A stretch of 32,000 bases of DNA from Candidatus Saccharimonadota bacterium (GCF_000300075.1 NC_018677.1:120001-152000); one strand, 5' to 3'. Counted from the stretch's first letter, positions 3,777-32,000 are shown. Notes: generated from the sequence alone by a model not told the origin. Program-made: numbers and translations.

Positions 3777-3896
3777 AGCTTGACGAATATAGTTTGTGGG
3801 ACCAACCTGAAACCATTCCGAACTCAGAAGTTAAATCACCTAACGCCTATGGTAGTATGAGGTTCTCCTCATGTGAGAGTAGGTTATCGTCAGGCT
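3777..3896 (+). rRNA. rrf: 5S rRNA
   Basis: 120 nt that align by eye to E. coli 5S: ccgaactcagaagt.aaa, gatggtagt-like ctatggtagta, and catgtgagagtagg. Terminal helix gcttgacg/cgtcaggc. Confidence 0.9.
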
Positions 3897-4160
3897 AGTA
3901 ATTGTTAAGTACTTATGTTTGTATAATCATAATTTATATGTTTAATACTTATATACGTTTTTTATACGAAGATCTAAAAAATAAATACTAATTGCTTGTT
4001 TTATATTATATTTTTTTATAGTTATGTTTTTTTAGATTAGTTATGTGTTATTATTTTTCTGTTGTATAAAGTATTTAAATAATTGGTTTCATTTTTAATA
4101 AATTGTATCGTTAAAATTAATTTTATAGTTAATAAGATGTAGTTTTGTAGATGAAGTAGA

Positions 4161-4258
4161 GGAAAAAGCAAAAAGCAGAAAAAAGAAAGCAGGGGTAAGT
4201 GTGGAAAAAGCAGAAAAAAGAAAGCAGGGGTAAGTGTGGAAAAAGCAGAAAAAAGAGG
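4161..4258. repeat. 35-bp purine-rich tandem repeat, ~2.7 copies
   Basis: The unit gcagaaaaaagaaagcaggggtaagtgtggaaaaa is identical at 4175-4209 and 4210-4244. A partial third copy starts at 4245 and a partial copy precedes 4175. Confidence 0.9.
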
Positions 4259-5420
4259 AAGTTAGAAAAAAAAGAGGTGGAAAAGAAATATGTATTGTGG
4301 AGTGTGTTATGTAGTTAGAGTATGTGATTTGTGAAAAAAAATATATAATTTTATACTTATAAAATGTGTTTGTGATGTATATGTATAGTACTTGATATGT
4401 ATTATATTTACGGGTTTACGTTAAGTAGGTATGTACTGTATGTTATGATTTTTAACTTAATTATATGTTAATACATTGGTTATGTTTTCTTTATTAAAAG
4501 CTTTAATTAAATTTATTGTTGTATTATGTATTCTTAATTTATTTTTTAAAACTTTAAAGATTATTTTTTGTTGTATAAACTACATAAGATGATGTTTTAA
4601 CTTTTAACTTGTAATTTGTTTATTATTAGTAAGAGTTCGTTGTACAATAAGAAAAAAAAAATTCTCTTAACTTCTTAAGTTGGGTTAGTTGATTTTTTAT
4701 AACTCTTTATCTGTTGTTTGTTTTTAAAAACATTAAGATTGGGTGGTTTGATTTTGGATAGTTTATAAGTTGTTATCTGTTAGTTTATTTAGTATTTTGT
4801 TTTTAACTTCTTAAAATTCGTATTTGTCATATATTTATTTATATATAAACCATCCTCTTTTGTATTCTTAAGTTCATTTACCATAATAGTTGTATTCTTA
4901 AATGGAAGTTAGATAAGTAGATGTTGTTGGTATTGTTAGTTAGATGGGATTTGTTTAGTTAGTAGCATAATTGAAGAAAGAGTTGTATAAGAAAAATAGT
5001 TAAATGGTTAGAGAAGTTGATGTTAGTGTTTGTTGGTAAATTGGTTAGTAGAGGTTGGTAATTAGATGTTAGATGTTAGAGAAAAGTTGGTAGTTGGAAG
5101 CTTGTAATATTTATTAATTGGTAGATGTTTGAATGTTGGTTAGTTGATAGCATATGTTATTTAAACGTTAGTTTTGTGTACAGTTTAAAAATGTTATATG
5201 CAGTTTAAAAGTTAGTAGTAATAGGTGTTATTGTTGTAAAAATAAGAAAAAGTTATTTATTTTTGAAAACAAATTAGTTAGGATCAATAAGATGTTATGC
5301 TACATAATTATAAGTTTGTATTTAATAGACGATTATTGTTAGTTTGGTTTAAATTCGCTTTGTTTGTTAAAAGTGGTAATGTTGTTTATTTAAGATTTTG
5401 CTGTTATAGGTTATGTATAC

Positions 5421-5530
5421 GATGTTTGATGTTTGATGTTTGATGTTAGCTGTTAGCTGTTAGCTGTTAGCTGTTTACTGTTAGCTGTTTGCTGTTAGGC
5501 TTGGTGGTAGGTGGTAGGTGGTAGGTGGTT
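5421..5530. repeat. Contiguous period-7 arrays: (GATGTTT)x4, (GCTGTTA)x7 with variants, (GGTGGTA)x4
   Basis: Counted directly: GATGTTT units start at 5421, 5428, 5435 and 5442; GCTGTTA-type units run from 5449 to 5497; GGTGGTA units run from 5503 to 5530. Confidence 0.92.
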
Positions 5531-5576
5531 TATGGTTAGATGTTGATTGTTGATGTTTGTTCGATGTTTGTTAAAT

Positions 5577-5627
5577 GGTTAGAGGTTAGAGGTTAGAGTT
5601 GTTAGTTGTTAGGTGTTAGGTGTTAGG
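5577..5627. repeat. Period-7 arrays (GGTTAGA)x3 and (GGTGTTA)x2.3
   Basis: GGTTAGA at 5577, 5584 and 5591; GGTGTTA at 5612 and 5619, plus a partial unit. Confidence 0.88.
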
Positions 5628-5754
5628 ATTGTTTATTTGTTATTGTTTGTTAGATCTTTGTGGTAAAAAAAAGATGTTATATGGTTATTTAGAAAGTAGA
5701 GTAAAGATGTTGGTTGTTTAGAAAGTAGGTTGATTTGTAGATTTTATCTGTTAG

Positions 5755-5785
5755 TTGTTAGTTAGTAGAGGTTAAAGGTTGCTTT
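5755..5785 (+). repeat. Left copy of a perfect 31-bp inverted repeat (partner 7142-7172)
   Basis: ttgttagttagtagaggttaaaggttgcttt is the exact reverse complement of aaagcaacctttaacctctactaactaacaa at 7142-7172. The flanks (about 5742-5800 versus 7127-7195) continue to match imperfectly. Confidence 0.9.
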
Positions 5786-5803
5786 AAAGATTAAAGCTTT
5801 TAG

Positions 5804-5831
5804 AGTTTGTAGTTTGTAGTTTGTAGTTTGT
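5804..5831. repeat. (AGTTTGT)x4 heptamer array
   Basis: Units at 5804, 5811, 5818 and 5825. Confidence 0.9.
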
Positions 5832-6837
5832 TTTTGCTTTATTTATTTGAGTTTGTATTCTTGTTAATTATATTTGTATAAGGTTGTATTTATAGGTCGT
5901 ATAGTTGTATATTGTAGGTTTGTTGTTAGATGGTAGAGGATTATTAATTAGATGTTAGAGTTTTGTTTTTTATCTGTTAGAGGTTTGTTTTATGTTGTTT
6001 AAATGGTTGCTTTAAAAAAAGGTTTGGTAGTTGTAATTCTTAATACTACAAAACATTATATAAACAAATAGCAATTAATACGGTTTATAATAATAAAGTG
6101 TAATAGTATATAGTTATTACAAATGTAATTGATTCAACAGTTCTTTAACCAAAACAAAAAAAAACATAAATAACGCCACTTTTACATTTCAAAATAACAT
6201 TAAGCAACTAACATATTCCTAACACAACTATGTTTAATGTTCTCACTAACCTAACAACTTTTCCAACAAACATACCACAAATATAACATATTTTATCCTC
6301 TTTAAAGCAACAACTTTTTAACAAATATCAAACAACATCTAACAACTATTTCTATATTTTACTTACAACAACCTACATCTAATAAATAAATTTATATTTT
6401 ATATACAACACTAATTAGAGTTACTAATATACAACAAATAAAAAAGAAATACATAAAATTAGAAATTACATACAAAAAAAAAGTTAGTAGAATATATACA
6501 ACAATAAAAAATCAAAACAATAAACAAAAAGAACAGATAAGAAATAAAGATCTAACAAAAAAGAAAATACAAAAAGAATTAAAAAACTCTAACTTAACTC
6601 AAAAATCCAAACGGCAAAGAAAAAAGAGAATATCAAACCATCAAACTCTTAAAAAACAACCTCAAAACATCAAATAAATAAACCTCTAACAGACTTAAAT
6701 ACAAACTCTTACCTCTAACATCAAAACATATAAAATATAATAAGTAAACTCTAAAAAACAACAACTAACAGATAAAAAAAAACATCTTTAATCTTTAAAG
6801 CAACTTCTTTTAAATCTAATAAACAATAAAAGCAACA

Positions 6838-6899
6838 ATCAAACATCAAACATCAAACCTAACAACTCAAACCTCAAACCTAACAACTCAAACCTCAAA
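6838..6899. repeat. (ATCAAAC)x3 followed by a 21-nt (3x7) unit x2
   Basis: ATCAAAC at 6838, 6845 and 6852. cctaacaactcaaacctcaaa at 6858-6878 and 6879-6899. ATCAAAC is the reverse complement of the GATGTTT-array motif at 5421. Confidence 0.9.
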
Positions 6900-7016
6900 A
6901 GTCTTAAAAGCAAAAACAAACAAAAATCTAAAAAAACAACAAATTTAACAACAAACCTCTAATAATAAATAATACAAGCAAACATTTAAACAATTAAAAC
7001 TCTAACATCAAAACAA

Positions 7017-7107
7017 GCTAACCGCTAACCGCTAACCGCTAAACAACAAACAACAAACAACAAACAACTAACAACTAACAACTAACCGCTAACCGCTAAC
7101 CGCTAAG
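7017..7107. repeat. 13 consecutive in-register heptads with a drifting motif: GCTAACCx3, GCTAAAC, AACAAACx3, AACTAACx3, CGCTAACx3
   Basis: Read unit by unit from 7017. The register is never broken over 91 nt while the unit sequence changes stepwise. Confidence 0.9.
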
Positions 7108-7141
7108 CTCTAATAGATAAAACATCACCTCTTAAATCTTA

Positions 7142-7172
7142 AAAGCAACCTTTAACCTCTACTAACTAACAA
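7142..7172 (-). repeat. Right copy of the perfect 31-bp inverted repeat (partner 5755-5785)
   Basis: See the partner feature. The two copies are separated by 1356 bp. Confidence 0.9.
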
Positions 7173-7368
7173 ATAAGCTCTAATAGATAAAACATAATAA
7201 CAAATAAAAACCATAACAACTAAAAAGAAAGAACGAGTAATATAACAGAAACAGCTTTAAATAGACAAAAACAACAAAGAAATAAAAAAAAAGCAACAAA
7301 AACTAAAAGAAAAAATAACAGAATACGGCTAAAAACATAACAGCAAAGAAAAGAAAAACCATAATAAC

Positions 7369-7424
7369 TAAACAGTAAACAGCAAACAGCAAACAGCAAA
7401 CAGCTAACAGCTAACAGCTAACAG
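7369..7424. repeat. (TAAACAG)x2 (CAAACAG)x3 (CTAACAG)x3 heptamer array
   Basis: Units start at 7369 and continue in register to 7424. CTAACAG is the reverse complement of CTGTTAG, which is the GCTGTTA array at 5449-5497. Confidence 0.9.
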
Positions 7425-7925
7425 CTTAACACATAAAAACAAAAACAAAAAAAAGAACAGCTTAAAAAAAAAAAAGAAAAAAAAATAAGAATAAATTGTT
7501 TAAATCTTTTATCAGAAAAAGTACAAAATGTAGAGTTTAAGATATAACAGCAGTAAAAAAAAGAAAATGGTTAACAAGTATATATAAAAAAACAAAAAGT
7601 CAAAAAAAAACAGCAGTAAAAATTAAGAAGAGTAGAAAAGGATATAGTATAGTGAAAAGAAAACTGGAAGATATACAGAAGTGAAGTACAAAAAGAACAA
7701 TAAACTTGGTAAAAACATGTATTAGCAATGAACGTTGAAAAATGAAAAAATTAAAGGCATTAAGCATAAATCGTTATATAAAAAATATAGTGATAATGGA
7801 AAAACATAGCTTAGAAAAATTATAAGCAACGGGATAAAATACAAGAAGCTGAATAATGATAAAATTCGATAAAAAAAAAGCAACAGTATAGCCACAAATA
7901 GATTGTGAAGGAAATTAAGAAGATT

Positions 7926-9359
7926 ATGAAAAAAATACGCACACGTATTGCACCTTCACCTACAGGTACACCGCATATAGGTACAGCATATATTTCTTTA
8001 TTAAATTATTATTTTGCTCGTATAAACAATGGAAAAGTAATTCTAAGAATAGAAGATACAGATAGTAAAAGATCAAAAAGTAAGTTTGAAAACAAAATTT
8101 TAGAGTTATTACATTGGTTAGGGATTCAATGGCATGAAGGGCCAGATATCGGAGGAAAGTTCGGACCTTATCGACAAAGCGAACGGAACAATCTTTATAA
8201 TAAATATGTTGAGAAATTAATAAAAGTAGGTAAAGTATTTAAATGCTATCGTACAAGTGAAGAACTAGAAAAATTGCGTAAATGTAAAGTTGATAAAACA
8301 TTAAAAGAAAAAGATTTACAGTTAGATTATAAGGAATTAAAATTTCGTAAAAAACACAATTGGCCTTATGTAATAAGACTAAAGGTTCCTAATAAAGGAA
8401 AATGCGTATTTTATGATGTATTAAGGGGTAGTATAACAATGAATTGGGATCAGATTGATTCACAAGTCTTAATAAAATCTGACGGAACACCTACTTATCA
8501 TTTAGCTAATGTAGTAGACGATTATTTAATGGGGATTACTAACGTAATAAGGGGTGAAGAATGGATAACTTCAACTCCAAAACATAAGTTGCTTTATGAT
8601 TATTTTGGTTGGAAACAGCCAGAATTTTGTCACTTACCATTATTACGTAATCCAGATAAATCAAAATTATCTAAGAGAAAACAAAATAATTCTATTGAAT
8701 TTTATCGAAAAATGGGTTATTTACCCCAAACAATAATAAACTACTTAGGTAGTTTAGGTGGTGTAAAAACGACTAAATGGTATAGAAAAAATACAAATAT
8801 GAAAACTAAAGTTGATATAAAGAGTATATCATTAGGAGGTCCAATATTTGATTTAGACAAATTATCTTGGTTGAATGGAATTTATATACGGTCAATGAAA
8901 AATGAAACGTTAATTCAGGTTATGTATGAATGGGCTAAAGACTATATACATAAGATTTTACCAACAATTAAACCTCGTATAAAAATTTTAACGGATATTA
9001 TTCATTTATCAGAACAAGTGTTTTATGGATTACCTAAATTAAAAAAGGAAGATTTTAAAGTTATTGCTTTGAAAAAAAAATTACAAATAAAAGTACTAAA
9101 ACATTTATGGTTACAATTAGAATATATAGAAAAATGGGACAAACAAAATATATTATATAAGGTAAAACAAGTATCTAACCAGTTACAAATGAAAATGAAA
9201 ACAATAATAGCTCCAATTTTTATTGCGATAAATGGAAGATTAATTTCTACATCGGTTATTAACACTATAGTAATTCTTGGTAAAGATATAACTCGTATAC
9301 GCATAAAGCAGGCAATAAAATTAATAGGAGGTATAACACTAAAACATGAAAACAAATAA
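7926..9359 (+). CDS. gltX: glutamyl-tRNA synthetase
   Basis: MKKIRTRIAPSPTGTPHIGTAY matches the GluRS N-terminus and HIGH region (E. coli MKIKTRFAPSPTGYLHVG). A KLSKRK (KMSKS-type) motif is present. The ORF track starts at GTG 7905, but ATG 7926 aligns with GluRS N-termini. Confidence 0.93.
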   Translation: MKKIRTRIAPSPTGTPHIGTAYISLLNYYFARINNGKVILRIEDTDSKRSKSKFENKILELLHWLGIQWHEGPDIGGKFGPYRQSERNNLYNKYVEKLIKVGKVFKCYRTSEELEKLRKCKVDKTLKEKDLQLDYKELKFRKKHNWPYVIRLKVPNKGKCVFYDVLRGSITMNWDQIDSQVLIKSDGTPTYHLANVVDDYLMGITNVIRGEEWITSTPKHKLLYDYFGWKQPEFCHLPLLRNPDKSKLSKRKQNNSIEFYRKMGYLPQTIINYLGSLGGVKTTKWYRKNTNMKTKVDIKSISLGGPIFDLDKLSWLNGIYIRSMKNETLIQVMYEWAKDYIHKILPTIKPRIKILTDIIHLSEQVFYGLPKLKKEDFKVIALKKKLQIKVLKHLWLQLEYIEKWDKQNILYKVKQVSNQLQMKMKTIIAPIFIAINGRLISTSVINTIVILGKDITRIRIKQAIKLIGGITLKHENK

Positions 9360-9389
9360 AGAATATTATTCAAATAAGGTATAAAAAAT

Positions 9390-12038
9390 ATGAAAATAGC
9401 ATTAGATAATGTTAGTTATTTAGAAGAACTATACGAACAATACAAAAATAAAGGTAATGTTACTGAAGAATGGCGGCAAATTTTTGACTATATTACTAAA
9501 CAAGAATGCAGGTTTAAAACTATAAAAACATGTGAAAAAAACACAATAAAACAAATGAGCGTTTTGAAACTTATAACAAATTATCGCTATATGGGGCATA
9601 AAAAGGCACATATAAATCCAATAAGTGGTAAAAATAAAGTAAAGGCGATTCAATTGTCATTACACAAGTTAAATATAAAAGATTTAAACAAAGCATTTAA
9701 TAATGGAGTAGGTCAAAATAAATCAAAATTAAAAGAAATTATTGATGTTTTGGATAAAACTTATTGCAGCTCTATAGGATGTGAATTTAGGCACATTTTA
9801 AATAATGTGGAGATATTCTGGTTAGAGCAAAGTTTTGAATCTGTACTCAATAAATATTCACAAAAAAAAAATATAAGCTTGCATATTTTAGGATTAATTA
9901 CTGCAGCTGAAGCATTAGAAGCTTATTTATCTAGTAATTTTCCTGGTACTAAACGGTTTGGTATAGAGGGTGGAGAAACTTTAATTGCTATGTTGTATGA
10001 AACAATACAAAGAGCTGGTAATTATGGCATTAAAGAAATATTTATGGGTATGGCCCACAGAGGACGTATAAATGTATTAGTTAATATTTTGAGGAAGAGC
10101 CCAGCTGATATAATAAAGGAATTTGAAGGAAAACAAATATATGAAGCATATTCGGGTGATGTTAAATATCATCAGGGTTTAAGTTCAAATATAAAGACAA
10201 AAGGTGGTGATGTGAAGTTGAACTTAGCATTTAATCCATCACATCTAGAAATTGTTTATCCTGTAATAGAAGGAGCAGTTCGTGCTAGACAAGATTATAT
10301 GAATGATACGACAAAAGTATTACCTGTAGTGGTACATGGTGACACAGCATTTGCTGGGCAAGGTGTAGTAATGGAAACATTACAAATATCAAAAATAAAG
10401 GAATATAATACGGGGGGTACGTTACATATCTTAATAAATAATCAGATAGGTTTTACCACTTATAAACATAATGCACGATCTACGAAATATTGTAGTGATA
10501 TTGCAAAAATGTTTAATTATCCTGTTTTACATGTAAATGGAGATGATCCAGAAGCGGTTCAATATGTAACTCAAATAGCAGTTGATTATAGGAATAAATT
10601 CAAAAAAGATATGGTAATAGATATGATATGTTATCGGCGTAGGGGCCATAATGAAGCAGACGAGCCATCAATAACGCAACCAATTATGTACAAAAAAATA
10701 AAAAATAATCCAACAACACGTGAACTTTATTCAAAACATTTATTAAAACAAGGTTTAATATCAAAAAGTGATGTAAAACAAATGGTGAGTTTATATCGTC
10801 ATAAGTTAAATTATGATTCTAATAATAAAGCTTATAAAAAAACAACTGGAAGTATGTATAAATTTCATGAGGAGGATTTAAATGACACATCATTTTCAAT
10901 GAAGCGTATGCGTGAATTAGCTGTAAAATTGTGCGATTTAGGTGAACTGAAAGTTCAAAGTAAAGTTGCTAAGATTTACTCAAATCGGCGTAAATTGGTA
11001 AGTAGTAATAGTATAAAAATAAATTGGGGCTTTGCGGAGCTGTTATCATATGCCTCGTTATTGGATGAAGGATATGGAATACGTATAACAGGACAGGACA
11101 CAGGAAGAGGAACTTTCTCTCATCGTTTGGCAGTAATACATAATCAAAAAGATGGAGCGAGGTGGACGCCTCTGCAACATATAAAAAAAGGGCAACATAA
11201 GTTTACGATAGTAGATTCTTCTCTTTCAGAAGAAGCAGCTCTAGCTTTCGAATACGGTTATTCTACTACATCAAAAAATATGTTCGTAGCGTGGGAAGCT
11301 CAGTTCGGTGACTTTGCTAATGGAGCCCAGGTAGTTATTGATCAATTTATATCTTCAGGGGAAAATAAGTGGGGAAGTTTATGCAGTCTAACTTTATTAC
11401 TGCCGCATGGATATGAAGGTCAAGGTCCAGAACATTCTTCCGCGCGGATAGAACGATTTATTCAGTTATGTGCGGAACAAAATATGCAAGTCTGTGTTCC
11501 TACAACTCCTTCACAAGTATTTCATTTAATACGTAGTCAGGCAAAACGAAAAAACCGTAAACCATTAATATTGATGCAACCAAAAAGTTTATTGAGGCAC
11601 AAATATGCAAGATCAAGTTTTGAAGATTTATCTAATGGAAGATTTAAAACAGTAATTGGAGAAACGGAGAAGATCAAGCCAGATATAGTAAAAAGGGTAA
11701 TACTTACATCAGGTAAAGTATATTACGATTTAGTTGCTTATCGTAAAGAAAAAAATATTTATGAAACAGCTATTTTAAGAATAGAACAGATTTATCCTTT
11801 CCCAGAAAAAAGTATTATAAAAAAAATATCTATTTACTCTAAGTGTGAACATATTATTTGGTGTCAAGAAGAACCTAAAAATCAAGGCGCTTGGTATCAA
11901 ATAAAATACTTTTTAAATAAGAAACTTAAGATAAGACTAAAATTTGTAGGACGTACCTCTGCATCCGCACCAGCATCTGGTTATTTTGATGCACATCTTA
12001 AACAGCAGGCTAATTTAATAAAAGAAGCATTTTTTTAA
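9390..12038 (+). CDS. sucA: 2-oxoglutarate dehydrogenase E1 component
   Basis: 882-aa ORF with E1o signatures GMAHRGRINVL, HGDTAFAGQGVV, QFGDFANGAQV and LLLPHGYEGQGPEHSS. An aaggt sequence lies 9 nt upstream of the ATG. Confidence 0.95.
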   Translation: MKIALDNVSYLEELYEQYKNKGNVTEEWRQIFDYITKQECRFKTIKTCEKNTIKQMSVLKLITNYRYMGHKKAHINPISGKNKVKAIQLSLHKLNIKDLNKAFNNGVGQNKSKLKEIIDVLDKTYCSSIGCEFRHILNNVEIFWLEQSFESVLNKYSQKKNISLHILGLITAAEALEAYLSSNFPGTKRFGIEGGETLIAMLYETIQRAGNYGIKEIFMGMAHRGRINVLVNILRKSPADIIKEFEGKQIYEAYSGDVKYHQGLSSNIKTKGGDVKLNLAFNPSHLEIVYPVIEGAVRARQDYMNDTTKVLPVVVHGDTAFAGQGVVMETLQISKIKEYNTGGTLHILINNQIGFTTYKHNARSTKYCSDIAKMFNYPVLHVNGDDPEAVQYVTQIAVDYRNKFKKDMVIDMICYRRRGHNEADEPSITQPIMYKKIKNNPTTRELYSKHLLKQGLISKSDVKQMVSLYRHKLNYDSNNKAYKKTTGSMYKFHEEDLNDTSFSMKRMRELAVKLCDLGELKVQSKVAKIYSNRRKLVSSNSIKINWGFAELLSYASLLDEGYGIRITGQDTGRGTFSHRLAVIHNQKDGARWTPLQHIKKGQHKFTIVDSSLSEEAALAFEYGYSTTSKNMFVAWEAQFGDFANGAQVVIDQFISSGENKWGSLCSLTLLLPHGYEGQGPEHSSARIERFIQLCAEQNMQVCVPTTPSQVFHLIRSQAKRKNRKPLILMQPKSLLRHKYARSSFEDLSNGRFKTVIGETEKIKPDIVKRVILTSGKVYYDLVAYRKEKNIYETAILRIEQIYPFPEKSIIKKISIYSKCEHIIWCQEEPKNQGAWYQIKYFLNKKLKIRLKFVGRTSASAPASGYFDAHLKQQANLIKEAFF

Positions 12039-12071: not shown

Positions 12072-13283
12072 ATTAAATATATAGAAATAAAAGCCCCTAG
12101 ATTTCCTGAATCTGTAAATGAAGGTACTGTTGCTACTTGGCATAAAAAACCTGGTGATAAAATTTCACCATATGAACTTATTGTTGAAGTAGAAACGGAT
12201 AAAGTTTTGCTTGAGGTTGTTTCACCAACTGAAGGGTTTCTTCAAATTATAAAGATACCAGTAGGTAAAAAATGCAAATCCGAGCAATTGTTAGGTATTA
12301 TTGTAGCACAAAAAGAAGAAGGTTTTTATAGTTCAGGTTCATCAAGCACAAGCACAAACATCAAACAGCAAAAATTGTGTAAAAAAGAGCAAAAGGTAGA
12401 TGAATCAGAAAAACAAGAATTAAAACAGTTTTATAAACAAGCAATAGAATTAGAAGAAAGTTATTCACCAGAGGTACGTAAGGCTAAGACTAGTATAGAT
12501 GTTGAAAACTTATTTGAGAATGGCACAGTACAAGATAAAAGGGTAAATATTAGAAAAGAAAATGTTAAATATAGTATTAATGAAATTGGAGTTAAAAGAG
12601 TACAATTAAGTCGTTTACGTCAGACGATTACTAAACGTATCGTGAAAGCTCAAAAAAATGCTGCAATGTTAACTACTTATAATGAAGTAGATATGGGTAA
12701 TATATTAGAAATACGCACAAAATATCGAGAACTATTTGAAAAGAAACATGGAACTAAGCTAGGGTTAATGGGATTTTTTGTAAAAGCTTGTACGGTGGCG
12801 CTAAAACAGTTCAAAAAAGTAAATGCAGTTATTGATGATAAAGAAATTGTTTATCATAATTATCAAGACATAGGAATAGCAGTTTCTACAAATAGGGGTT
12901 TAGTTGTTCCTATTTTAAGGCATACTGATTCTATAAAAATAGAAGAAATAGAAAAAAAAATTATGGATTTTAGGAAACGTGGTGTTGATGGAAAATTAAG
13001 TATTAAAGAATTAACTGGTGGAACTTTTACGATAAGTAATGGAGGAGTTTTTGGATCTCTGTTTTCTACTCCTATTATTAATCCCCCTCAAACTGCTATT
13101 TTGGGAATGCATAAAATTCAAAACCGTCCTGTAGTTTTAAAAGGAGAAATAGTTATACGGCCTATGATGTATTTAGCCTTGTCGTATGATCATCGTCTTA
13201 TTGATGGAAAAGATGCAGTTAATTTTTTATTTTTTGTTAAGGAGCTTTTAGAACAACCCATTCGTTTTATATTAAACATTTAA
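12072..13283 (+). CDS. sucB: dihydrolipoyllysine-residue succinyltransferase (E2o); start codon non-canonical and uncertain
   Basis: The catalytic domain carries [10 protein letters not shown]. The ORF track begins at TTG 12207, but the same frame is open from 12054 and encodes an intact lipoyl domain (..[20 protein letters not shown]...[12 protein letters not shown]). There is no ATG, GTG or TTG in frame upstream of 12207. ATT at 12072 sits 8 nt after an AGGA at 12060-12063. Confidence 0.85.
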
Positions 13284-13288
13284 CTGTA

Positions 13289-14722
13289 ATGAGAAAAACA
13301 AATATGGTATCTCTTTTTGATGTAATTGTCATAGGTTCAGGTCCAGCTGGTTACGTCGCTGCAATAAGATCTGCGCAATTAGGACTTAAAACTGCTTGTG
13401 TTGAACAATGGATGAATAATGGAAGAGTTGTTTATGGCGGTACTTGCTTAAATGTTGGGTGTATACCTTCAAAAACTTTATTAGAAATATCACATAAGTT
13501 TATTGATGCTAAGGCGAATTTCGAAAAAATAGGTATAAATTTTGAAAATATTAGTATAAATGTAAAAAAAATGATCAGGCATAAAAATAAAATTGTTTAT
13601 AGCTTAAATGATGGAATTGCAGCTTTGTTCAAAGCTAATGGTGTTGTAGTATTAAGAGGATCTGGTAAGATTTTAACAAAAAAAACAGTAGAAGTGTTAC
13701 ATAAAGGTAAGCTTTGTAATTTTAAAGCTAAGAATATTATTATTGCTTCAGGATCTATACCTCGTTGCCTAAATCAGGTCCCTTTTAACGGCGATACTAT
13801 AATAGACTCTGCAGCTGCTTTAAATTTACAAGAGGTACCTAATCGTTTAGGTATAATCGGAGCAGGTATTATTGGGATAGAATTAGGCTCAGTTTGGAGT
13901 CGGCTAGGTAGCAAAGTTACTATATTTGAATCTTTAGATAAGTTATTACCAGTTATTGACTTTTCTTTATCAAAACAAATATCGCAAATTTTAAAAAAAC
14001 AAGGGTTAAATATAAAATTTAATGTGCGTATTATTGGTAGTGAAATTGTAAATAACGAAGTAAAAGTTAGATTTATAGATCATTTTGGTGAGCATTGCTT
14101 AACTTTTGATAAGTTGATAGTTTGTATTGGTAGGATGCCTTTTACACAATCGTTAATAGATAAAGAGAGTGGTCTAGTTATTGCCACTAATGGCTTTATT
14201 AAAGTTGACAGACAATGCAAAACAAATTTATCAGGAATTTACGCTGTTGGAGACGTTGTTAGGGGTCCTATGTTAGCACATAAAGCGGCTCAAGAAGGCA
14301 TAATGGTGGCTGAGCTTATAGCAGGGAATCAGGTACAGTTAAATTATGATACTATTCCAGGGGTAATTTATACAAGTCCAGAAGTAGCTTGGGTTGGCAA
14401 AAATGAACAGCAGCTTATTTCATATGGCATAAAAAATTACAAAATAGGTATTTTTCCTTTTGCTAATTGTGGTAGAGCTAGGACAAGTAATGAAATACAA
14501 GGTCTTGTAAAAATAATTACAGATGTTAACGATATAATTTTGGGTGTGCATATTATTGGCCACAATGCTAGTGAATTAATTGCTCAGGGTGTTATTGCTA
14601 TGGAATTTAGTTCAAGTGCAGAGGATTTAGCTTTAACTTGCTTTGCTCATCCAACTCTCTCAGAAGCAATACACGAAGCAGCTTGTACTGCATCATTAGG
14701 CAATACGATTCATAATATTTAA
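13289..14722 (+). CDS. lpdA: dihydrolipoyl dehydrogenase (E3)
   Basis: Motifs present: VIGSGPAGY FAD-binding motif, redox-active disulfide GGTCLNVGCIPSK, a GAGIIGIELG NAD fold, and C-terminal HAHPTLSEA. An alternative start is ATG 13304. Confidence 0.94.
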   Translation: MRKTNMVSLFDVIVIGSGPAGYVAAIRSAQLGLKTACVEQWMNNGRVVYGGTCLNVGCIPSKTLLEISHKFIDAKANFEKIGINFENISINVKKMIRHKNKIVYSLNDGIAALFKANGVVVLRGSGKILTKKTVEVLHKGKLCNFKAKNIIIASGSIPRCLNQVPFNGDTIIDSAAALNLQEVPNRLGIIGAGIIGIELGSVWSRLGSKVTIFESLDKLLPVIDFSLSKQISQILKKQGLNIKFNVRIIGSEIVNNEVKVRFIDHFGEHCLTFDKLIVCIGRMPFTQSLIDKESGLVIATNGFIKVDRQCKTNLSGIYAVGDVVRGPMLAHKAAQEGIMVAELIAGNQVQLNYDTIPGVIYTSPEVAWVGKNEQQLISYGIKNYKIGIFPFANCGRARTSNEIQGLVKIITDVNDIILGVHIIGHNASELIAQGVIAMEFSSSAEDLALTCFAHPTLSEAIHEAACTASLGNTIHNI

Positions 14723-15232
14723 TTAATCTTAATTTCATAGAATGGAAATTAGTTGTTACATATACTTGTTGTTTATTATTAATAGAGTATATATTTCTCT
14801 TTCACAAATTTGGGTAAATTTTATTTTGTATTGTTGCCATTAGTTAATACAAAAAACTAAGAATGTACTAAGTTAAAAATTAACAGTTTATTTCTTTAAA
14901 GACTTTTTATAACAGGTTATTTATTGCTTGTACATTAAAAACTTTTGTTATTGATATATTAATTTTATTAACAGTTTGTTGTTAGAAGTAAAACGTTATT
15001 ATTAATAATTTTCATAATTTGGTTGATAACTATTTAAGATATTCTATGTTGTGTTTAAAATTTGTGCTTTTTTTTTTATTTTTTTTTGATTAAGATGTTA
15101 ACTGTTTTTTCTGTTTTGTTTGTTTTATGGTGTATGTTTATTTTGTGTTTTTTTTTGCTTTTGTTTTTTATGTAATATTTTTAAGTTTTGTTGTTAGTTT
15201 TTCTTCTTTGTTTTTATTGTTATGTTTTTTAT

Positions 15233-15263
15233 TAGAGGTTTTAGGTTGCTTTAAAGATTTAAG
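15233..15263 (+). repeat. Copy of the dispersed spacer module TAGAGGTT(NNAGGTT)GCTTTWAAGATTTAAG
   Basis: tagaggttttaggttgctttaaagatttaag. Compare 5766-5796 tagaggttaaaggttgctttaaagattaaag (+), 7131-7161 (reverse complement tagaggttaaaggttgcttttaagatttaag), 21004-21027 (reverse complement tagaggttgcttttaagatttaag) and the partial copy at 21074-21094. Confidence 0.8.
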
Positions 15264-15863
15264 CTGTTGTATTAAAGAGTTTTTTTTTGTGAGGTTGTTT
15301 AGAGTTTTGTTTTTTGTTATTACTTAGTAGTTGTTAGTTGTTAAAATTGGTTATTACTTATTAGTTGTATAGAGAAAGTGAAGTTGTGTATATTAGTATT
15401 GTTTGTAAATAAGGTTGTTGTAAATGTGGTATAAAGGTTGTTGTAAAAAATATTGTATTATTACTGTTGTTAATGATAGAAATATATAAAAATAGATGTT
15501 AAGTGATGGTATTTGGTATTACTAAATAGTTGTGTGTTTTGTGTTAGGCATAATTAGTAAAGGTATTGTGGTTGTGTATTATGTGAGATTGTAAAAGGTT
15601 GGTGGTTGTAAAACAGTTCGTGGTTAAATGAAAAAGTGTTGTATTATAAAAAGAAAAAAATAGTAACTTATTTGTATTTTTTATGAATGGAATTGGGTGA
15701 AAGGTGTATAATGTGTGTATTTGTATTACATGAAAAATGAAATTGTATTGTATTTAGTATTATTATTATTGTGTTAGGTGATGTGGTAATGTGTTGTAGT
15801 TGTGTATTTGATGATTTGTGTAAATGTGTTGTAGTAGTATATGGTGTAAGAGTTTTAAAAAGG

Positions 15864-15930
15864 TTGCTGGTTTGTGTAGTTGTTTTAAAAGAAAGTAAAA
15901 GATTGCTGGTTTGTGTAGTTGTTTTTAAAA
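15864..15930. repeat. Direct repeat, 39-nt period, 2 copies
   Basis: ttgctggtttgtgtagttgtttt..aaaa starts at 15864 and again at 15903. Confidence 0.85.
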
Positions 15931-15987
15931 AACAAGTAAGAAGTTGTAAAAAAAAAGAAGGAAAAGGAAAAAATTGGCAATTGGCAG

Positions 15988-16005
15988 TTGGGGTTGGGGT
16001 TGGGG
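15988..16005 (+). repeat. (TTGGGG)x3
   Basis: ttggggttggggttgggg read directly. It is followed by a gtagtttgtagt heptad motif. Confidence 0.9.
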
Positions 16006-16110
16006 TTTTGTAGTTTGTAGTCGTATGTTGTAGGTGTGATATGTATAAGATGTTAGAAGTTGTTGTTAGCTGGTAGGAGTTGTGCTAAATGTACTTTGTT
16101 ATTATTTATT

Positions 16111-16131
16111 AGCAGTTAGCAGTTAGCAGTT
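16111..16131. repeat. (AGCAGTT)x3 heptamer array
   Basis: agcagttagcagttagcagtt read directly. Confidence 0.9.
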
Positions 16132-16420
16132 TTGTGAGGTTGTTTTGTGTTTTGAAGTTTGTTAATTTGTGTAAGGTGGAAGAAAAAAGTTATAATTGTT
16201 AGTAAATAAATGTGTTATAAAATATTAAAAGAATTTATATAAGTGGTGATAAGTAAAAGGTAGGTTGTATAAAAGGGAAAAAAAAGTTGTAGTAAAAGTT
16301 GTAGTTAGTTTATTAATGGAAAAGATTTATAAAATAAACAGAAGGGATTTAGTTAATTGAAAAATGTAGAGGGTTAAAGTAAGATAATAGATTGGTGTTG
16401 TTGAAATAAGTAGTAAAATT

Positions 16421-16498
16421 AGTAATAGTAGTAAGATGTAAAAGAAGGGTTGTTAAGTTGGTAGTAATAGTAGGTAAATGTAAAAGAAGGGTTGTTAA
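16421..16498. repeat. 36-nt segment duplicated with a 42-nt period, ending 13 nt before the rpsF ATG
   Basis: agtaatagtagtaagatgtaaaagaagggttgttaa (16421-16456) versus agtaatagtaggtaaatgtaaaagaagggttgttaa (16463-16498): 33 of 36 positions identical. Confidence 0.85.
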
Positions 16499-16511
16499 TA
16501 AGGACAAAAAT

Positions 16512-16799
16512 ATGAATTATGAAATAAATATATTATTAAATGTAAATAATGACAATTTAACATCAGAAAATATAAAAAAGTTAATTAAAATTATTATTGA
16601 AAATAATGGAAGAATAACCAAGTTGGAAGACTTAGGGAATTTAAATTTATATTATTTAATAAAAAAGCAAAAACAAGCTAATATTATATTAATAAACATA
16701 GATTGTGAAAAATATGTTATAAAAAAATTAGAAAAAAGACTTAAATATAATGAAGTGATAATTAGATATATTATTATAAAAAATCTAAGGCAAAAATAA
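16512..16799 (+). CDS. rpsF: 30S ribosomal protein S6
   Basis: MNYEINILLN.. aligns with S6 N-termini (E. coli MRHYEIVFMV). aaggac lies just upstream. The ORF-track start at 16458 (TTG) adds 18 residues translated from repeat sequence. Confidence 0.85.
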   Translation: MNYEINILLNVNNDNLTSENIKKLIKIIIENNGRITKLEDLGNLNLYYLIKKQKQANIILINIDCEKYVIKKLEKRLKYNEVIIRYIIIKNLRQK

Positions 16800-17498: not shown

Positions 17499-18853
17499 AA
17501 AAAATCATTAATGATAAAAAACAAACCAAAACACCTCCTCATTCAGTAGAAGCAGAAAAAGCACTACTAGGTGGTGTAATGCTTGATAATGCCGCGTGGA
17601 AAAAAATATCTGAAATTATTAAAAATGAAGATTTCTATAGTATAGAACATAAATATATATTTGATGCCATTACACATATAGCAGAAAAAAATAATAAAGT
17701 AGATATGGTAACGGTTGCGGAATCGTTAGAAACAAACAATAAATTACAAAAAATTGGTGGAATAAGTTATTTAACAGAATTATCTAGAAATACTCATTCA
17801 ATACATAATATTGTTGCTTATGCAGATATAGTTAGAGAATGTTCAAATTTGCGAAATTTAATAAGAATCTCAAAAAAAATAGCAGAAGAAGCTTTTAATA
17901 GAAATGGTAAAAAGGTGCAAGACATAATACACAAAGCTGAAAAATTAATATTGACAATGGCAGAATCGAGATATAGAGTTAAAAAAACAAATTTATTAAA
18001 TTTAAATGAATTATTAAATAAAACAATAAATAGTATAAATAAAATGTATAGTACAAAAAGTTCTATGACTGGTTTACTAACAGGATTTAATGAATTAGAT
18101 AATATGACTTCTGGCTTTCAAAAAGCAGATTTAATAATAATAGCAGGTAGACCGTCTATGGGTAAGACGAGTTTTGCAATGAATATCGTAGAATATATTA
18201 TAAAAACCAATAAATCTGATCCAGTAATAATCTTTTCTATGGAAATGCCTGCAGAGCAATTAATATTGCGATTGTTATCTTCAGTAGGACGTATAGATCA
18301 AACGAATATAAGAAAAGGTAATATAGGAGAAGAGGATTGGTTGAAATTAACGGAATCATTAAAGAAAATAAAGAATTGTAAATTATATATAGATGATACC
18401 CCAATGATTACCCCAATAGATATAAGAAAAACAATAAAAAAATGTATAAGAGATACGGGAAAAATAAGTTTAATAATGATAGATTATTTACAATTAATGC
18501 ATGTATCTTCTTCTTTTATATCATATAATCGTACGGCTGAAATTTCCGAAATATCTAGATCTTTAAAAAGTATAGCTAAAGAATTTAATTGTCCTATATT
18601 AGCTGTATCACAATTAAATAGATCATTAGAACAAAGAAACAATAAACGGCCAATAATTTCAGATTTAAGAGAATCAGGTGCAATAGAACAAGATGCAGAT
18701 TTAATTTTATTTATTTATAGAGATGAAGTATATAATAGTGATTGTTTAGATAATAAAGGTATTGCGGAGTTAATAATAGGAAAACAAAGAAATGGGCCAA
18801 TAGGTGTTATTAACATTAGATTTACAGGAAAATATACTAAATTTGAAAATTAA
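17495..18853 (+). CDS. dnaB: replicative DNA helicase
   Basis: 452-aa ORF with PPHSVEAEKALLGG, Walker A GRPSMGKTS, IDYLQLM, SQLNRSLEQR and RESGAIEQDADL. Its ATG overlaps the rplI stop (ATGA). Confidence 0.95.
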   Translation: MKKIINDKKQTKTPPHSVEAEKALLGGVMLDNAAWKKISEIIKNEDFYSIEHKYIFDAITHIAEKNNKVDMVTVAESLETNNKLQKIGGISYLTELSRNTHSIHNIVAYADIVRECSNLRNLIRISKKIAEEAFNRNGKKVQDIIHKAEKLILTMAESRYRVKKTNLLNLNELLNKTINSINKMYSTKSSMTGLLTGFNELDNMTSGFQKADLIIIAGRPSMGKTSFAMNIVEYIIKTNKSDPVIIFSMEMPAEQLILRLLSSVGRIDQTNIRKGNIGEEDWLKLTESLKKIKNCKLYIDDTPMITPIDIRKTIKKCIRDTGKISLIMIDYLQLMHVSSSFISYNRTAEISEISRSLKSIAKEFNCPILAVSQLNRSLEQRNNKRPIISDLRESGAIEQDADLILFIYRDEVYNSDCLDNKGIAELIIGKQRNGPIGVINIRFTGKYTKFEN

Positions 18854-19600
18854 AAAAACAAAAGAAGTAGGTTGAAAAAAGAATTTATAAGAAACAGGTA
18901 TAATAAACATTTTCATTTACACTTAAATAATTAATATAAAAATTTTGATTAGATTGTAGAATTAGGATCATGTTCCGTTTATGAGTATGTTTTATTTACG
19001 AACGAATCTTTTAACTACATACAACATAAACTGGTTATTTTATATATAACTAATACAGAACAGAAAGCAGTTATAAAAAAGTAACAAACATACTAGTTAT
19101 TCAATAGAAATTGATAATGAGATAAAAAAAAGTTATTAAAATTTAAAGTGATTGAAGTAACTTTAAAAGTATTTGAGTTATAGCAAGGTTTAATTATAAA
19201 ATATATGTAAAATTCACTAATAAATAAAATATATGGATAAAATTACGGTTTCAAAACGAAGTAGCACAGAAAGAGAGTTGTAGCTTTTATTGATAAAAGT
19301 TTGTGTAGTATTTCAATTAGTGATTGTACAAAAGTTTTGTAAAGTGTTTACAGTATTTACTTAAAGTTAATGCATTAAAAGTTTGTAAAAGAAGTTAAAA
19401 TAAAGTTAAGTTAATACCTTATAATAAATAAGATTAAACGATAATAAACAGTATATAAATTGTAAGAAAATATTCTTCAAAGAAACGGCAAACATTACAA
19501 AAGAAATTAAAGTGATAAAAAAATAGGTCAAACAAAAAACAACCAAGCAAAAATATTAACAATAAACTAATTTGTAAAACTAACAAAGACAATAATTGAA

Positions 19601-20623
19601 TTAAAATAAAGGATATTTAAGTTCTTCTAAACACCAAGTAGGGCGTATAAGAAGTTTGTTAGTTATTTTTTCTCCTGAAGTGAGCCTCAAAGCTCCGACA
19701 TAAGCAATCATTGCAGCATTATCTGTACAAAGAACTTGGTCAGGAAAAGTAATTTGAAAATTATTAAGTTTATTTTTAAAAAACAAATTAAAATGTTTAC
19801 GTAAAGTCTTATTTGCACTTACACCGCCTGAAATTAGAAGACAAGATCTACCATAATAAATTAAGGCTTTATAACATTTGTAGCTTAGCATATTAAGAAC
19901 ATATTCTTCAAAGGATTTTGCTAAATTAGCCTTATATTGATATTTATTAGTGTATTTGAATTGTTTTAAATAATTTAAAATATATGTTTTAAGTCCAGAA
20001 AAACTGAAAGTTATATTATTTCTTAATATTTTAGGAAAGTTTTGTTTTTTTATTTTACCAAAACAGGCTAAATGGGATAACCTTACCCCTCCGGGATAAT
20101 ACAGTTTAAGGACTTTTGCTATTTTATCAAAAGTTTCTCCAAGAGAAACATCTTTGGATTCTCCTAGTATTTTGTAATGGCCTATATTTTGAACATCAAT
20201 TAGTTGAGTATTACCTCCAGAAATTAATAAACAAATAAAAGGAAAATCAGGTTTTTTTTTATTGATCATAGCTGAAAATATATGCCCTTCTAAATGATTA
20301 ATTCCTAAAATAGGCAGTTTAAGTGTATAAGAAATGCTATAAGCAATATAGGCTCCAATAAGCAAAGATTGGTATAATCCAGGTCCCGCAGTATAGGCTA
20401 TTGCGTTGATATTAGTTGTATGAATTTGAAATTTAAAGAATAAAGATTTAATAATAGGAATTATTTTATTTAAATGATAAAATGAAGAAAATTTTGGTAT
20501 GACGCCTCCAAAAATAGTATGTATAGTTTGAGTATATTTTTTTGTTGTAATTAAACCAGACTTAGTATCATATATGGCAATGCATGTGTCATCACAAGAT
20601 GTTTCAATTCCTAAAATAATCAT
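19601..20623 (-). CDS. tsaD: tRNA N6-adenosine threonylcarbamoyltransferase (Kae1/Gcp family)
   Basis: [19 protein letters not shown] matches the TsaD N-terminus (E. coli [19 protein letters not shown]). NHLEGH and LISGGVSAN motifs are present. It is divergent from rpsU, as in many Gammaproteobacteria. Confidence 0.93.
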
Positions 20624-20984: not shown

Positions 20985-21146
20985 AAATAAACCTCAAACA
21001 TAACTTAAATCTTAAAAGCAACCTCTAAAAGCTAAACTCTAAACTCTAAAATCTTAAATCTTAAATCTTAAATCTTAAAACTTAAAAGCAACCTAAAACA
21101 TCTACTAACAAATAAACCTCAAACATAACTTAAATCTTAAAAGCAA
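20985..21146. repeat. Perfect 37-nt direct repeat (20985-21021 and 21110-21146) flanking heptamer arrays (AAACTCT)x2 and (AAATCTT)x4-5 at 21034-21083
   Basis: aaataaacctcaaacataacttaaatcttaaaagcaa occurs twice, identically. AAATCTT units start at 21049, 21056, 21063 and 21070, with a variant at 21077. Confidence 0.9.
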
Positions 21147-27761: not shown

Positions 27762-28093
27762 TTTACATTAAAGTTTTTATCTCTCTTGTTTGATTTTTTA
27801 AAACCTAACTACATATCTCTTTTTGTTTTTGTTTTTATTTTTCTTTTTTAAAACTTAACGTGTTCCTTTTTTTATTCAGTTGTTTCTTTTTTTTTACAAC
27901 GTTACAATATTTTAAAATTAAACCCTTACATTCAACTCTTATCTTTAACCACAACCACAACCAAAACGTGCTTTAGATATTAAAATCTTTTCTTAAACCC
28001 AAACCCTCTTTAAATCAACAATTTTTAACGCCTCTACTTTAATATTACATCCTCAAACATTATATAATAACTAACCTCTACCTTTAAATCTTA

Positions 28094-28185
28094 TTATCTA
28101 ATCTAACAAATATCTACCTTCTTTTACTTGTTATCTAATCTAACAAATATCTACCTTCTTTTACTTGTTATCTAATCTAACAAAA
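28094..28185. repeat. 37-bp tandem repeat, ~2.5 copies
   Basis: ttatctaatctaacaaatatctaccttcttttacttg is identical at 28094-28130 and 28131-28167. A partial third copy starts at 28168. Confidence 0.92.
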
Positions 28186-28487: not shown

Positions 28488-28599
28488 CAAAAACAAATAA
28501 CATATAAAAGACTAAAAAAAAACAAAACATTATACAGTATACATCATAAGAGATTAACAGCCTAACATCTTATCATCCTAATATCATAAATTCATAAGA

Positions 28600-28623
28600 G
28601 CTTAACAGCTTAACAGCTTAACC
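28600..28623. repeat. (GCTTAACA)x3 octamer array
   Basis: gcttaacagcttaacagcttaacc read directly. The related string cataagag(c/a)ttaa recurs at ~28545, ~28593 and ~28658. Confidence 0.85.
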
Positions 28624-28932: not shown

Positions 28933-28992
28933 TCAATACAATTCTACTTTTGTTTGTCAATACAACTCTACTTTTGTTTGTCAATACAACTA
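28933..28992. repeat. 24-bp tandem repeat, 2.5 copies, ~180 nt upstream of rpsO
   Basis: tcaatacaattctacttttgtttg (28933-28956), tcaatacaactctacttttgtttg (28957-28980), and the partial copy tcaatacaacta (28981-28992). Confidence 0.9.
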
Positions 28993-31885: not shown

Positions 31886-32000
31886 TTTAGAGTTTTGAGT
31901 TTAGAGGTTTGTTTTAAAGCTTTTAGAGGTTAGTTTTTAAAAGATAAAAGATTAAAGATTAAAGATTTTAGAGTTTGTAGTTTGTAGTTAGAGGTTAGAG
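31886..32000. repeat. Heptad arrays, (AAAGATT)x3 at 31947-31967 and (AGTTTGT)x2.5; includes a 34/35-nt copy of 5787-5821 at 31955-31989
   Basis: aagattaaagattttagagtttgtagtttgtagtt (31955-31989) versus aagattaaagcttttagagtttgtagtttgtagtt (5787-5821): a single mismatch. The window ends inside a GGTTAGA-type array. Confidence 0.88.

Follow-up and report, generated by a model that had tools for sequence, protein, structure and literature searches.

What sets the unit length of the tandem repeats that accumulate in a bacterial genome? The question is raised by a stretch of 32,000 nucleotides (nt) from GCF_000300075.1 (NC_018677.1:120001-152000; the window, with all positions counted from its first letter), in which the spacer between a ribosomal RNA (rRNA) operon and gltX carries a run of heptanucleotide arrays at 5421-5831. 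A first-pass annotation, made from the sequence alone, had described the window's spacers as built from concatenated heptamers and had read this as unusual for a bacterium, pointing to a specific slippage mechanism or to common descent from one ancestral heptamer. Judged by its sequence, the window is Candidatus Portiera aleyrodidarum, the gammaproteobacterial obligate symbiont of Bemisia tabaci MEAM1, because its rRNA operon and gene content fit Portiera and its GltX is 100% identical to that of Portiera BT-B-HRs, the symbiont of B. tabaci biotype B (= MEAM1). Its 23S rRNA is nearest to Halomonas-type sequences, and its protein relatives are those of Candidatus Portiera aleyrodidarum. Here we show that the period-7 signal is strong and was already on record for this genome, and that a Portiera lineage sharing the same ancestral gene losses carries 5-nt units instead.

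Period 7 dominates the spacers of the window. Counting perfect arrays of at least three copies, we find 16 of period 7 in the 9.1–9.5 kb of intergenic DNA. Under a null model that resamples the sequence locally, as a first-order Markov chain in blocks of 200 nt, and so comes close to the local dinucleotide composition, the mean is 0.01 and the maximum 1. Periods 6 (null mean 0.09) and 8 (0.01) are represented by a single array each and periods 4, 5 and 9–15 by none (null mean up to 1.5), so that 7 leads the spectrum after correction for composition. The 17 kb of coding DNA in the window hold no array with a unit longer than 4 nt. At 5421-5530 the lag-7 identity is 0.83, with lags 6 and 8 near 0.25; over the full range 5421-5831 it is 0.64, and in sliding 56-nt windows with a self-match of at least 70% lag 7 is the best lag at 346 of 362 positions. 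Every array listed in the first-pass annotation is present, by Tandem Repeats Finder (TRF) and by direct reading, including a 21-nt unit of three heptads that TRF places at 6846-6899. Its picture of spacers built from heptamers is nevertheless overstated, since recognisable period-7 tracts make up about 1150 of 9119 spacer bases, or 13%; outside them the spacers keep a weak but significant lag-7 excess (z = 5.7), together with a lag-3 excess (z = 4.4). Abutting arrays are mostly in register and one substitution apart (ATGTTTG, ATGTTAG, CTGTTAG, CTGTTTG), as had been proposed, but the phase is not unbroken, for at the junction CTGTTAG-GCTTG-GTGGTAG the heptad position shifts by 5 nt.

The observation is real and highly significant, and it is also known. 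Sloan & Moran 2013 (Genome Biol Evol 5:783, PMC3673631) described a "dramatic spike at 7 bp" among the unit lengths of tandem repeats across the whole B. tabaci Portiera genome, with the repeats concentrated in enlarged intergenic regions and with 7-bp insertions and deletions (indels) between strains, and later papers restate the point about 7-bp repeats. The same authors tied repeats and indels to the loss of dnaN, dnaQ, dnaX, holA, holB, mutL, ruvC and ssb (their Table 3), among which dnaQ encodes the proofreading subunit of DNA polymerase III, dnaN the clamp, and dnaX, holA and holB the clamp loader. In one compact Portiera genome holA adjoins lpdA; the corresponding position of the window has no holA. 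Ours is the same organism and the same phenomenon, with no difference in kind, and all the published traits that we tested recur here: a genome of the B. tabaci complex, a 7-nt peak (found in five other strains as well), the absence of coding arrays, and 7-bp tandem indels. The preference cannot therefore be called unusual, the more so as many prokaryotes have heptanucleotides as their commonest class of long simple-sequence repeats, a finding that PMC4692102 and PMC4679880 attribute to Mrazek et al. 2007. Taken alone, the period-7 observation re-finds a published feature of a well-studied symbiont and adds little; what we add is a single-step network of units, an account of neutral flanks, the recognition of a dispersed module as a composite array, a switch in strand composition, and a comparison of lineages without functional dnaQ.

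That comparison provides the main new result, which we did not find in the literature searched. Perfect arrays of at least three copies were again counted by period. The six B. tabaci-complex genomes, at 21–32 kb each, hold 4 to 18 arrays of period 7 and at most three of any other period from 4 to 12. A sister lineage, ENA assembly ERZ27294174, is represented by a 42-kb contig collinear with the window (GltX 89% and PNPase 84% identical) that also has expanded spacers; it holds eight arrays of period 7, four of period 6 and one of period 5, and its heptamers include ATGTTTG and AACAAAC, both present in the window. Portiera of Singhiella simplex, over 43.5 kb, has 100 period-5 arrays, 12 with 4-nt units, 11 with 6-nt units and a single one with 7-nt units; in its spacers alone, period-5 arrays number 54 and 45 at the two loci sampled, versus a null of about 0.7. 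Four lineages of compact Portiera with the ancestral gene order (11–26 kb each) have no array of period 5–7, and the other PNPase and GltX relatives that we retrieved come from compact genomes only, with no further expanded-spacer lineage among them. The window, ERZ27294174 and S. simplex Portiera all have the rRNA operon next to gltX with a spacer of 2.6-4 kb. By blastn the spacers of different lineages share low-complexity matches only, apart from a stretch of about 300 nt, 66% identical, beside gltX in ERZ27294174.

The pentamers of S. simplex Portiera resemble the window's heptamers in several respects: they form short perfect arrays of single-step units in strand-skewed, expanded spacers, including the orthologous rRNA-gltX spacer, in a genome without functional dnaQ, but the unit is 5 nt with multiples of 10, 15 and 20 nt as composites, and the arrays are much denser. 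They fill 7053-10018, 14179-15534 and 18003-20600 of locus L007 and 12781-16577 and 18315-20256 of locus L019, they are diverse (TGTAA, TGGTT, TAGTG, TAATG, ACGAT, GTGGG, ATTTC), and the strand skew is as extreme as in the window. The sole period-7 array of these loci, TAAGATT x4.3 at L007 17993-18022, overlaps the 3' end of lpdA and is similar to the window's AAGATTN units (21049, 31947). We found no mention of the pentanucleotide arrays in the literature searched. Santos-Garcia et al. 2020 list 3 tandem repeats in S. simplex Portiera versus 111 in B. tabaci Portiera, but their supplement limits the repeat scan to units of 7-30 nt, so the pentamers were invisible to the published census, and the cut-off made it miss most of the microsatellites of that genome. 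The same study dates six losses of replication and repair genes to the ancestor shared by the Singhiella, Aleurolobus and Bemisia symbionts, and it gives dnaQ as a pseudogene in S. simplex Portiera; the pentamer and heptamer lineages therefore share ancestral losses in replication and repair. On balance, unit length would seem to be a heritable, lineage-specific trait in Portiera without functional dnaQ, 5 nt in S. simplex and 7 nt (with some 6) in B. tabaci and ERZ27294174, with the orthologous rRNA-gltX spacer refilled by different repeat families after one shared loss of fidelity. The difference between 5 and 7 nt speaks more for a unit length that is inherited than for a polymerase footprint fixed at 7 nt.

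Within the window the units look like a family. On the G+T-rich strand they run in chains that change by one base per step, as in ATGTTTG x3, ATGTTAG, CTGTTAG x3, CTGTTTA, CTGTTAG, CTGTTTG, and again in ATTTAAG x3, ATTTTAG, AGTTTAG x2. A single-step mutation network centered on (N)TGTTAG joins 11 of the 13 distinct cyclic units, whereas the largest component in 2000 composition-matched random sets averages 3.3 and never exceeds 10, which supports the suggestion of common descent. The exceptions to period 7 sit close to the same family. The only period-8 array, TAACAGCT x3.5 on the minus strand at 28595-28622, has as the reverse complement of its unit CTGTTAAG, in which a single A has been inserted into the family heptamer CTGTTAG. 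Related heptamers of the ATTGGCA / GTTGGCA type adjoin the sole period-6 array (GTTGGG).

Arrays have also been copied from one spacer to another. The core of a dispersed module, AGGTTGCTTTWAAGATT, has 10 matches at up to three mismatches versus 1.06 expected, on both strands, 9 of the 10 in spacers, and the copies always stand amid heptad arrays. As the first-pass annotation had noticed, two copies differ by exactly one heptad, TAGAGGTT-GCTTTT in one and TAGAGGTT-AAAGGTT-GCTTT in the other. When nine copies are aligned, the part they have in common is a 45-nt core with heptad structure only, and the alignment shows no defined ends, terminal inverted repeats or target-site duplications. One copy is predicted to form a 7-bp hairpin, and the two bases that vary in the putative stem are non-compensatory and fall at the same position of adjacent heptads (TTTAAAG ATTAAAG vs TTTTAAG ATTTAAG). 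Since the module lacks defined ends and varies at one and the same heptad position, it is best seen as an old composite heptad array copied between spacers. Larger direct or inverted copies pair 5425-5496 with 7378-7449, 5751-5796 with 7131-7176, 5784-5828 with 31952-31996, and 21034-21076 with 31941-31983.

The inverted copies bear on the strand composition of the spacers, which is extremely skewed: on the plus strand, C makes up 3-4% of the G+T-rich parts and G about 5-6% of the A+C-rich ones. The spacer at 3896-7904 is G+T-rich on that strand (4% C) up to about 6040 and then A+C-rich (about 6% G) to about 7500, and each of the other spacers is of a single polarity. Inverted copies of both arrays and module flank the switch near 6040, which suggests an inverted duplication or an inversion there and not an effect of transcription. 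Transcription direction was considered as the source of strand composition and rejected, as G+T-rich and A+C-rich patches have no consistent relation to the orientation of the flanking genes.

Turnover of the arrays can be followed among strains. For the 5S-gltX and lpdA-rpsF spacers we built an alignment of the window with five other complete B. tabaci-complex Portiera genomes, which are collinear with it. Array positions are constant across the six genomes and lengths differ by whole heptads. The alignment has 79 distinct gap blocks, 61 of them multi-base; the commonest multi-base gap is 7 nt (10 blocks), followed by 35 nt (5), 42 nt (3) and 49 nt (2), and multiples of 7 account for 22 of the 61. 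The unit is 7 nt in 9 of the 15 indels that lie within a perfect tandem context. Whole-unit slippage is thus visible between strains, and the arrays are not random low-complexity drift, as had been argued. Further events can be seen: a block of about 100 aligned columns (a pairwise gap of 91 nt) is gone in one strain, a repeat with no more than 2.3 copies contains a 7-nt indel, duplications to two copies of 5, 9 and 12 nt have arisen de novo between strains, and the closer sample DRR806962 has unit gains of +7 and +6 nt. Outside the tracts spacer divergence is 0.15-0.25% for the MED strains and 1.1-2.0% for two further B. tabaci-complex genomes, and at four-fold degenerate sites of adjacent genes it is 0.16-0.32% and 1.1-1.3% respectively; inside the tracts the apparent divergence is 4-19%. 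As the non-tract rate equals the four-fold degenerate rate, the spacers look neutral, and neutral spacers with arrays as hot spots of turnover argue against a conserved function.

We think it likely, all told, that the arrays are neutral, fast-turnover microsatellite DNA in expanded spacers, with the unit of 7 inherited from a founder repeat family. Three steps of this process can be seen directly. By slippage, arrays of 3-5 heptads gain and lose whole units; a point mutation gives a variant heptad which, re-amplified beside its parent, produces an in-register chain with one base changed per step; and composite arrays are copied as segments, direct and inverted, into other spacers. From the published gene losses we infer a causal tie to a replicase lacking clamp, proofreading and mismatch repair: being poorly processive, it would slip often, and the resulting loops would stay unremoved. 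The unit of 7 would come from a founder family of roughly (N)TGTTAG. With slippage leaving the unit length as it is and duplication spreading the arrays, the value of 7 need not reflect a physical constant of the polymerase. Mutations of the unit length would be rare, the period-8 array being a derivative by one-base insertion and the period-6 array lying beside related heptamers. Founder-family inheritance is favored because the units are closely related, because arrays have spread with their flanks, and because the sister lineage with the same ancestral losses settled on 5 nt.

The most serious competitor, which we nonetheless regard as unlikely, is that the crippled replicase slips preferentially by about 7 nt because that much primer-template sits in the active site of the polymerase, so that arrays are born independently at many sites. 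A footprint of this kind, with 7 nt as the length of DNA that may be held by the polymerase, was proposed by Mrazek et al. 2007 (as cited in PMC4692102 and PMC4679880) along with the heptamer excess in many bacteria; it would agree with 7 nt being the commonest multi-base indel between strains, with the 2.3-copy case, which may be a de novo duplication, and with the same preference in ERZ27294174. The de novo duplications of 5, 9 and 12 nt speak against it, as does the fact that the window heptamers are far closer kin than composition-matched random heptamers and recur together with their flanks. So does S. simplex Portiera: with six shared ancestral losses and a dnaQ pseudogene it has 100 period-5 arrays versus one of period 7, which weakens the specific slippage mechanism offered in the first-pass annotation. 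A mechanical preference could still operate if DnaE or its partners have diverged between lineages, and the diversity of the S. simplex pentamers fits frequent de novo births. Those pentamers could equally mean that 5-nt arrays are often born anew through a preference peculiar to that lineage, and this counts against founder inheritance, as do the narrow G+T-rich alphabet, which weakens the network test, the possibility that long-term mutation of independently born arrays could also yield related units, and the extent of the data, limited to 32 kb for the window's genome and to 43.5 kb for S. simplex Portiera. A further variant, slippage stabilised by hairpins, was tried and rejected: the predicted DNA folding of the arrays is 0 to -5 kcal/mol, that is, essentially unstructured single strands.

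The remaining explanations carry far less weight. Selection might keep the repeats for promoter spacing, as phase-variation switches, as G-quadruplexes, or as sites for single-strand-binding proteins of the cold-shock type; regulatory roles have been proposed elsewhere for TAACTGA in Beggiatoaceae and GGGNATC in Xanthomonas and Nostoc (PMC4692102, PMC4679880), and the GGTGGTA array has repeated GG tracts. We find this highly improbable, given that nothing in the spacers varies more than the arrays (4-19% vs about 0.2% in their flanks in the MED strains), that whole arrays are deleted in some strains, that they are found in either orientation and separated from gene starts by hundreds to thousands of bases, that compact Portiera genomes with the same genes have none, and that the single strands are essentially without predicted structure and no RNA family matches the spacers. 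No array has four or more runs of at least three G, the units having isolated G or GG only and the GG runs being confined to GGTGGTA; nor does any array lie in the listed open reading frames (ORFs), the nearest listed gene start being about 480-2500 nt away. To an origin in a small non-autonomous mobile element we assign an equally slight chance. Here the 45-nt module, resembling a miniature inverted-repeat transposable element (MITE) or a repetitive extragenic palindromic (REP) element, would have carried the arrays, and its excess of matches in both orientations, always among heptad arrays, together with the hairpin of one copy, would suit that idea; the aligned copies, however, have neither ends, terminal inverted repeats nor target-site duplications, the stem differences are those of a decayed heptad array, and no transposase was found among the ten large ORFs of the window scanned against Pfam. 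The alignment leads us to reject the module both as a hairpin element and as a MITE- or REP-like one. That low-complexity DNA was misassembled or missequenced is scarcely credible: short-read contigs from other samples do stop inside the arrays, but five complete genomes besides the window, each assembled independently, have the arrays in matching places, as do several Logan contigs.

Several known repeat systems invite comparison with neutral arrays descended from a founder family. The class of Mrazek et al. 2007, to the extent that it is cited in PMC4692102 and PMC4679880, is like the window in having non-coding arrays of 5-11-nt units led by 7 nt and in excess of composition, for which slippage was proposed; it differs in that 7 nt was taken as a property of the polymerase, whereas in Portiera the preferred length is 5 or 7 depending on the lineage. 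Cyanobacteria have three types of tandem heptanucleotide in Calothrix PCC 7601 (short tandemly repeated repetitive sequences, STRR) and GGGGAYT in Nostoc (PMC4692102 / PMC4679880). Like those of the window, these are intergenic tandem heptamers with several related unit types per genome, but they belong to a free-living phylum with intact repair, they have other units, and some form G-quadruplexes. The STRR units are reportedly CCCCAGT, TTGGTCA and CAACAGT; the window comes from a gammaproteobacterial symbiont and its units are of the (N)TGTTAG family. The phase-variable contingency repeats of Haemophilus and Neisseria, including heptanucleotides in H. influenzae, change by whole-unit slippage; they lie in the ORFs or promoters of genes for surface structures, whose expression they switch. 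Whole-unit change in copy number is shared with the window, whose arrays are instead far from gene starts, without gene association, and neutral. Fry and Salser are said to have proposed in 1977 a 'library' model of eukaryotic satellite DNA in which related short-unit variants are amplified in different places or lineages. The likeness lies in the family of related units; the difference is that the window has tiny arrays (20-60 bp) in a 358-kb bacterial genome.

If unit length is indeed inherited in this way, these Portiera genomes would serve as a natural experiment in how repeat unit length is set, and they argue against a fixed 7-nt footprint. Lineages that share losses and carry 5- or 7-nt units allow a direct test of the two explanations offered for the widespread heptamer excess in bacteria, one a polymerase footprint, the other founder repeat families that slippage and duplication have spread.

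The arrays themselves are richest in the spacer from 5S rRNA to gltX (3896-7904), which is non-coding by Rfam and by ORF and Pfam analysis and has no pseudogene remnants by tblastn. On its plus strand, 5421-5498 is a composite of GATGTTT x3.9 followed by about eight copies of TGTTAGC with TGTTTGC and TGTTTAC variants; it is lost within the deletion of about 100 columns in strain CP016327, and its unit types are reshuffled in the MED strains. It is followed by GGTGGTA x3.9 at 5503-5529, with one more unit in CP016343, by TGTTGAT x2 and degenerate heptads at 5540-5572, with three copies (+7 nt) in the MED strains, and by GGTTAGA x3.1, TTGTTAG x2, GTGTTAG x2 and decayed heptads at 5577-5651, where four other strains lack five heptads as one block of 35 nt. 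Further along, 5749-5803 holds TGTTAGT x2.1 and the dispersed module TAGAGGTTAAAGGTTGCTTTAAAGATTAAAGCTTTTAGAG, a decayed composite heptad array, and 5804-5831 holds AGTTTGT x4.0, reduced to three copies (-7 nt) in three other strains. On the minus strand, 6838-6899 has ATCAAAC x3, the reverse complement of GATGTTT, and then the 21-nt unit TCAAACCTCAAACCTAACAAC x2.6, forming an inverted repeat with 5424-5455. The composite at 7017-7106 (GCTAACC x3.7, AAACAAC x4, AACAACT x3.4, CTAACCG x3.6) shows strain indels of 7, 35 and 57 nt; an inverted copy of the module at 7131-7176 is 93% complementary to 5751-5796; and AAACAGC x4 with AACAGCT x4 at 7370-7431 is the inverted counterpart of 5444-5496, 92% complementary over 53 nt.

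Elsewhere, the plus strand carries AATTGGC x2.9, GTTGGG x3.5 (the period-6 array) and TTTGTAG x2.1 at 15972-16021, where the unit gains of DRR806962 fall, and TTAGCAG x3.3 at 16109-16131, with a 7-nt indel among strains. At 20999-21117, on the minus strand, arrays of AAACTCT and AAATCTT x4.4 have a copy of the module on each side, two in all. AAAGATT x4.0 and AGTTTGT x2.6 at 31940-31989, on the plus strand, are 91% identical to 5784-5828 and inverted relative to 21034-21076. Such arrays break de Bruijn assemblies, so that short-read contigs begin or end within them; Logan contigs from six other samples have ends inside heptad arrays at 7394-7420 and 16007-16057. A perfect 35-nt repeat (5 x 7 nt) of 2.5 copies at 4170-4256 varies in copy number by strain, giving 35- and 70-nt indels in the B. 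tabaci complex. Longer tandem repeats that are not multiples of 7 occur at 28090-28184 (37 nt x2.6, 98% matches), 28933-28991 (24 nt x2.5) and 15858-15946 (39 nt x2.2).

The window opens with the rRNA operon (partial 16S, tRNA-Ile, 23S and 5S, ending at 3895), followed by gltX, sucA, sucB, lpdA, rpsF, rpsR, rplI, dnaB, tsaD (on the minus strand) and rpoD, and then by a cytochrome o oxidase cluster, tRNA-Tyr, rpsO and pnp, with long non-coding spacers between the genes that total about 9.1 kb. At gathering thresholds Rfam finds only the rRNAs and two tRNAs in the window. Decayed genes were also considered as the source of the spacers and rejected, tblastn of ORFs of at least 80 amino acids from three compact Portiera loci giving nothing below E = 0.17. 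At 7806-7847 there is a weak 14-residue match (57% identity, E = 0.56) to the C-terminus of the DEAD-box helicase whose gene lies directly upstream of gltX in compact Portiera genomes; the match may be the last trace of a lost gene.

Some minor observations concern the genes. In sucB an in-frame hexanucleotide repeat, CAAGCA x2.5, stands at 12343-12357; two Logan samples (L002, L003) have one unit fewer, and the MED-type loci L017 and L018 have a sucB product of the same length as this shorter form, 356 amino acids. The segment 12039-12206, a gap in the mechanical ORF list, is no spacer; it is probably the N-terminal lipoyl domain of sucB, because other strains are annotated with a 398-residue product bearing a Biotin_lipoyl domain. 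Portiera of Pealius mori, which is compact and has dnaQ, carries long 9-nt coding repeats in sucB (L008 14319-14520) and also arrays of 8, 10 and 11 nt, with none of period 5-7. Finally, a 37-nt direct repeat at 16420-16498, 92% identical and with its copies 42 nt apart, spans the rpsF start at 16458, so that the start region of rpsF is duplicated, and the annotated length of rpsF differs among strains, 113 vs 118 amino acids.

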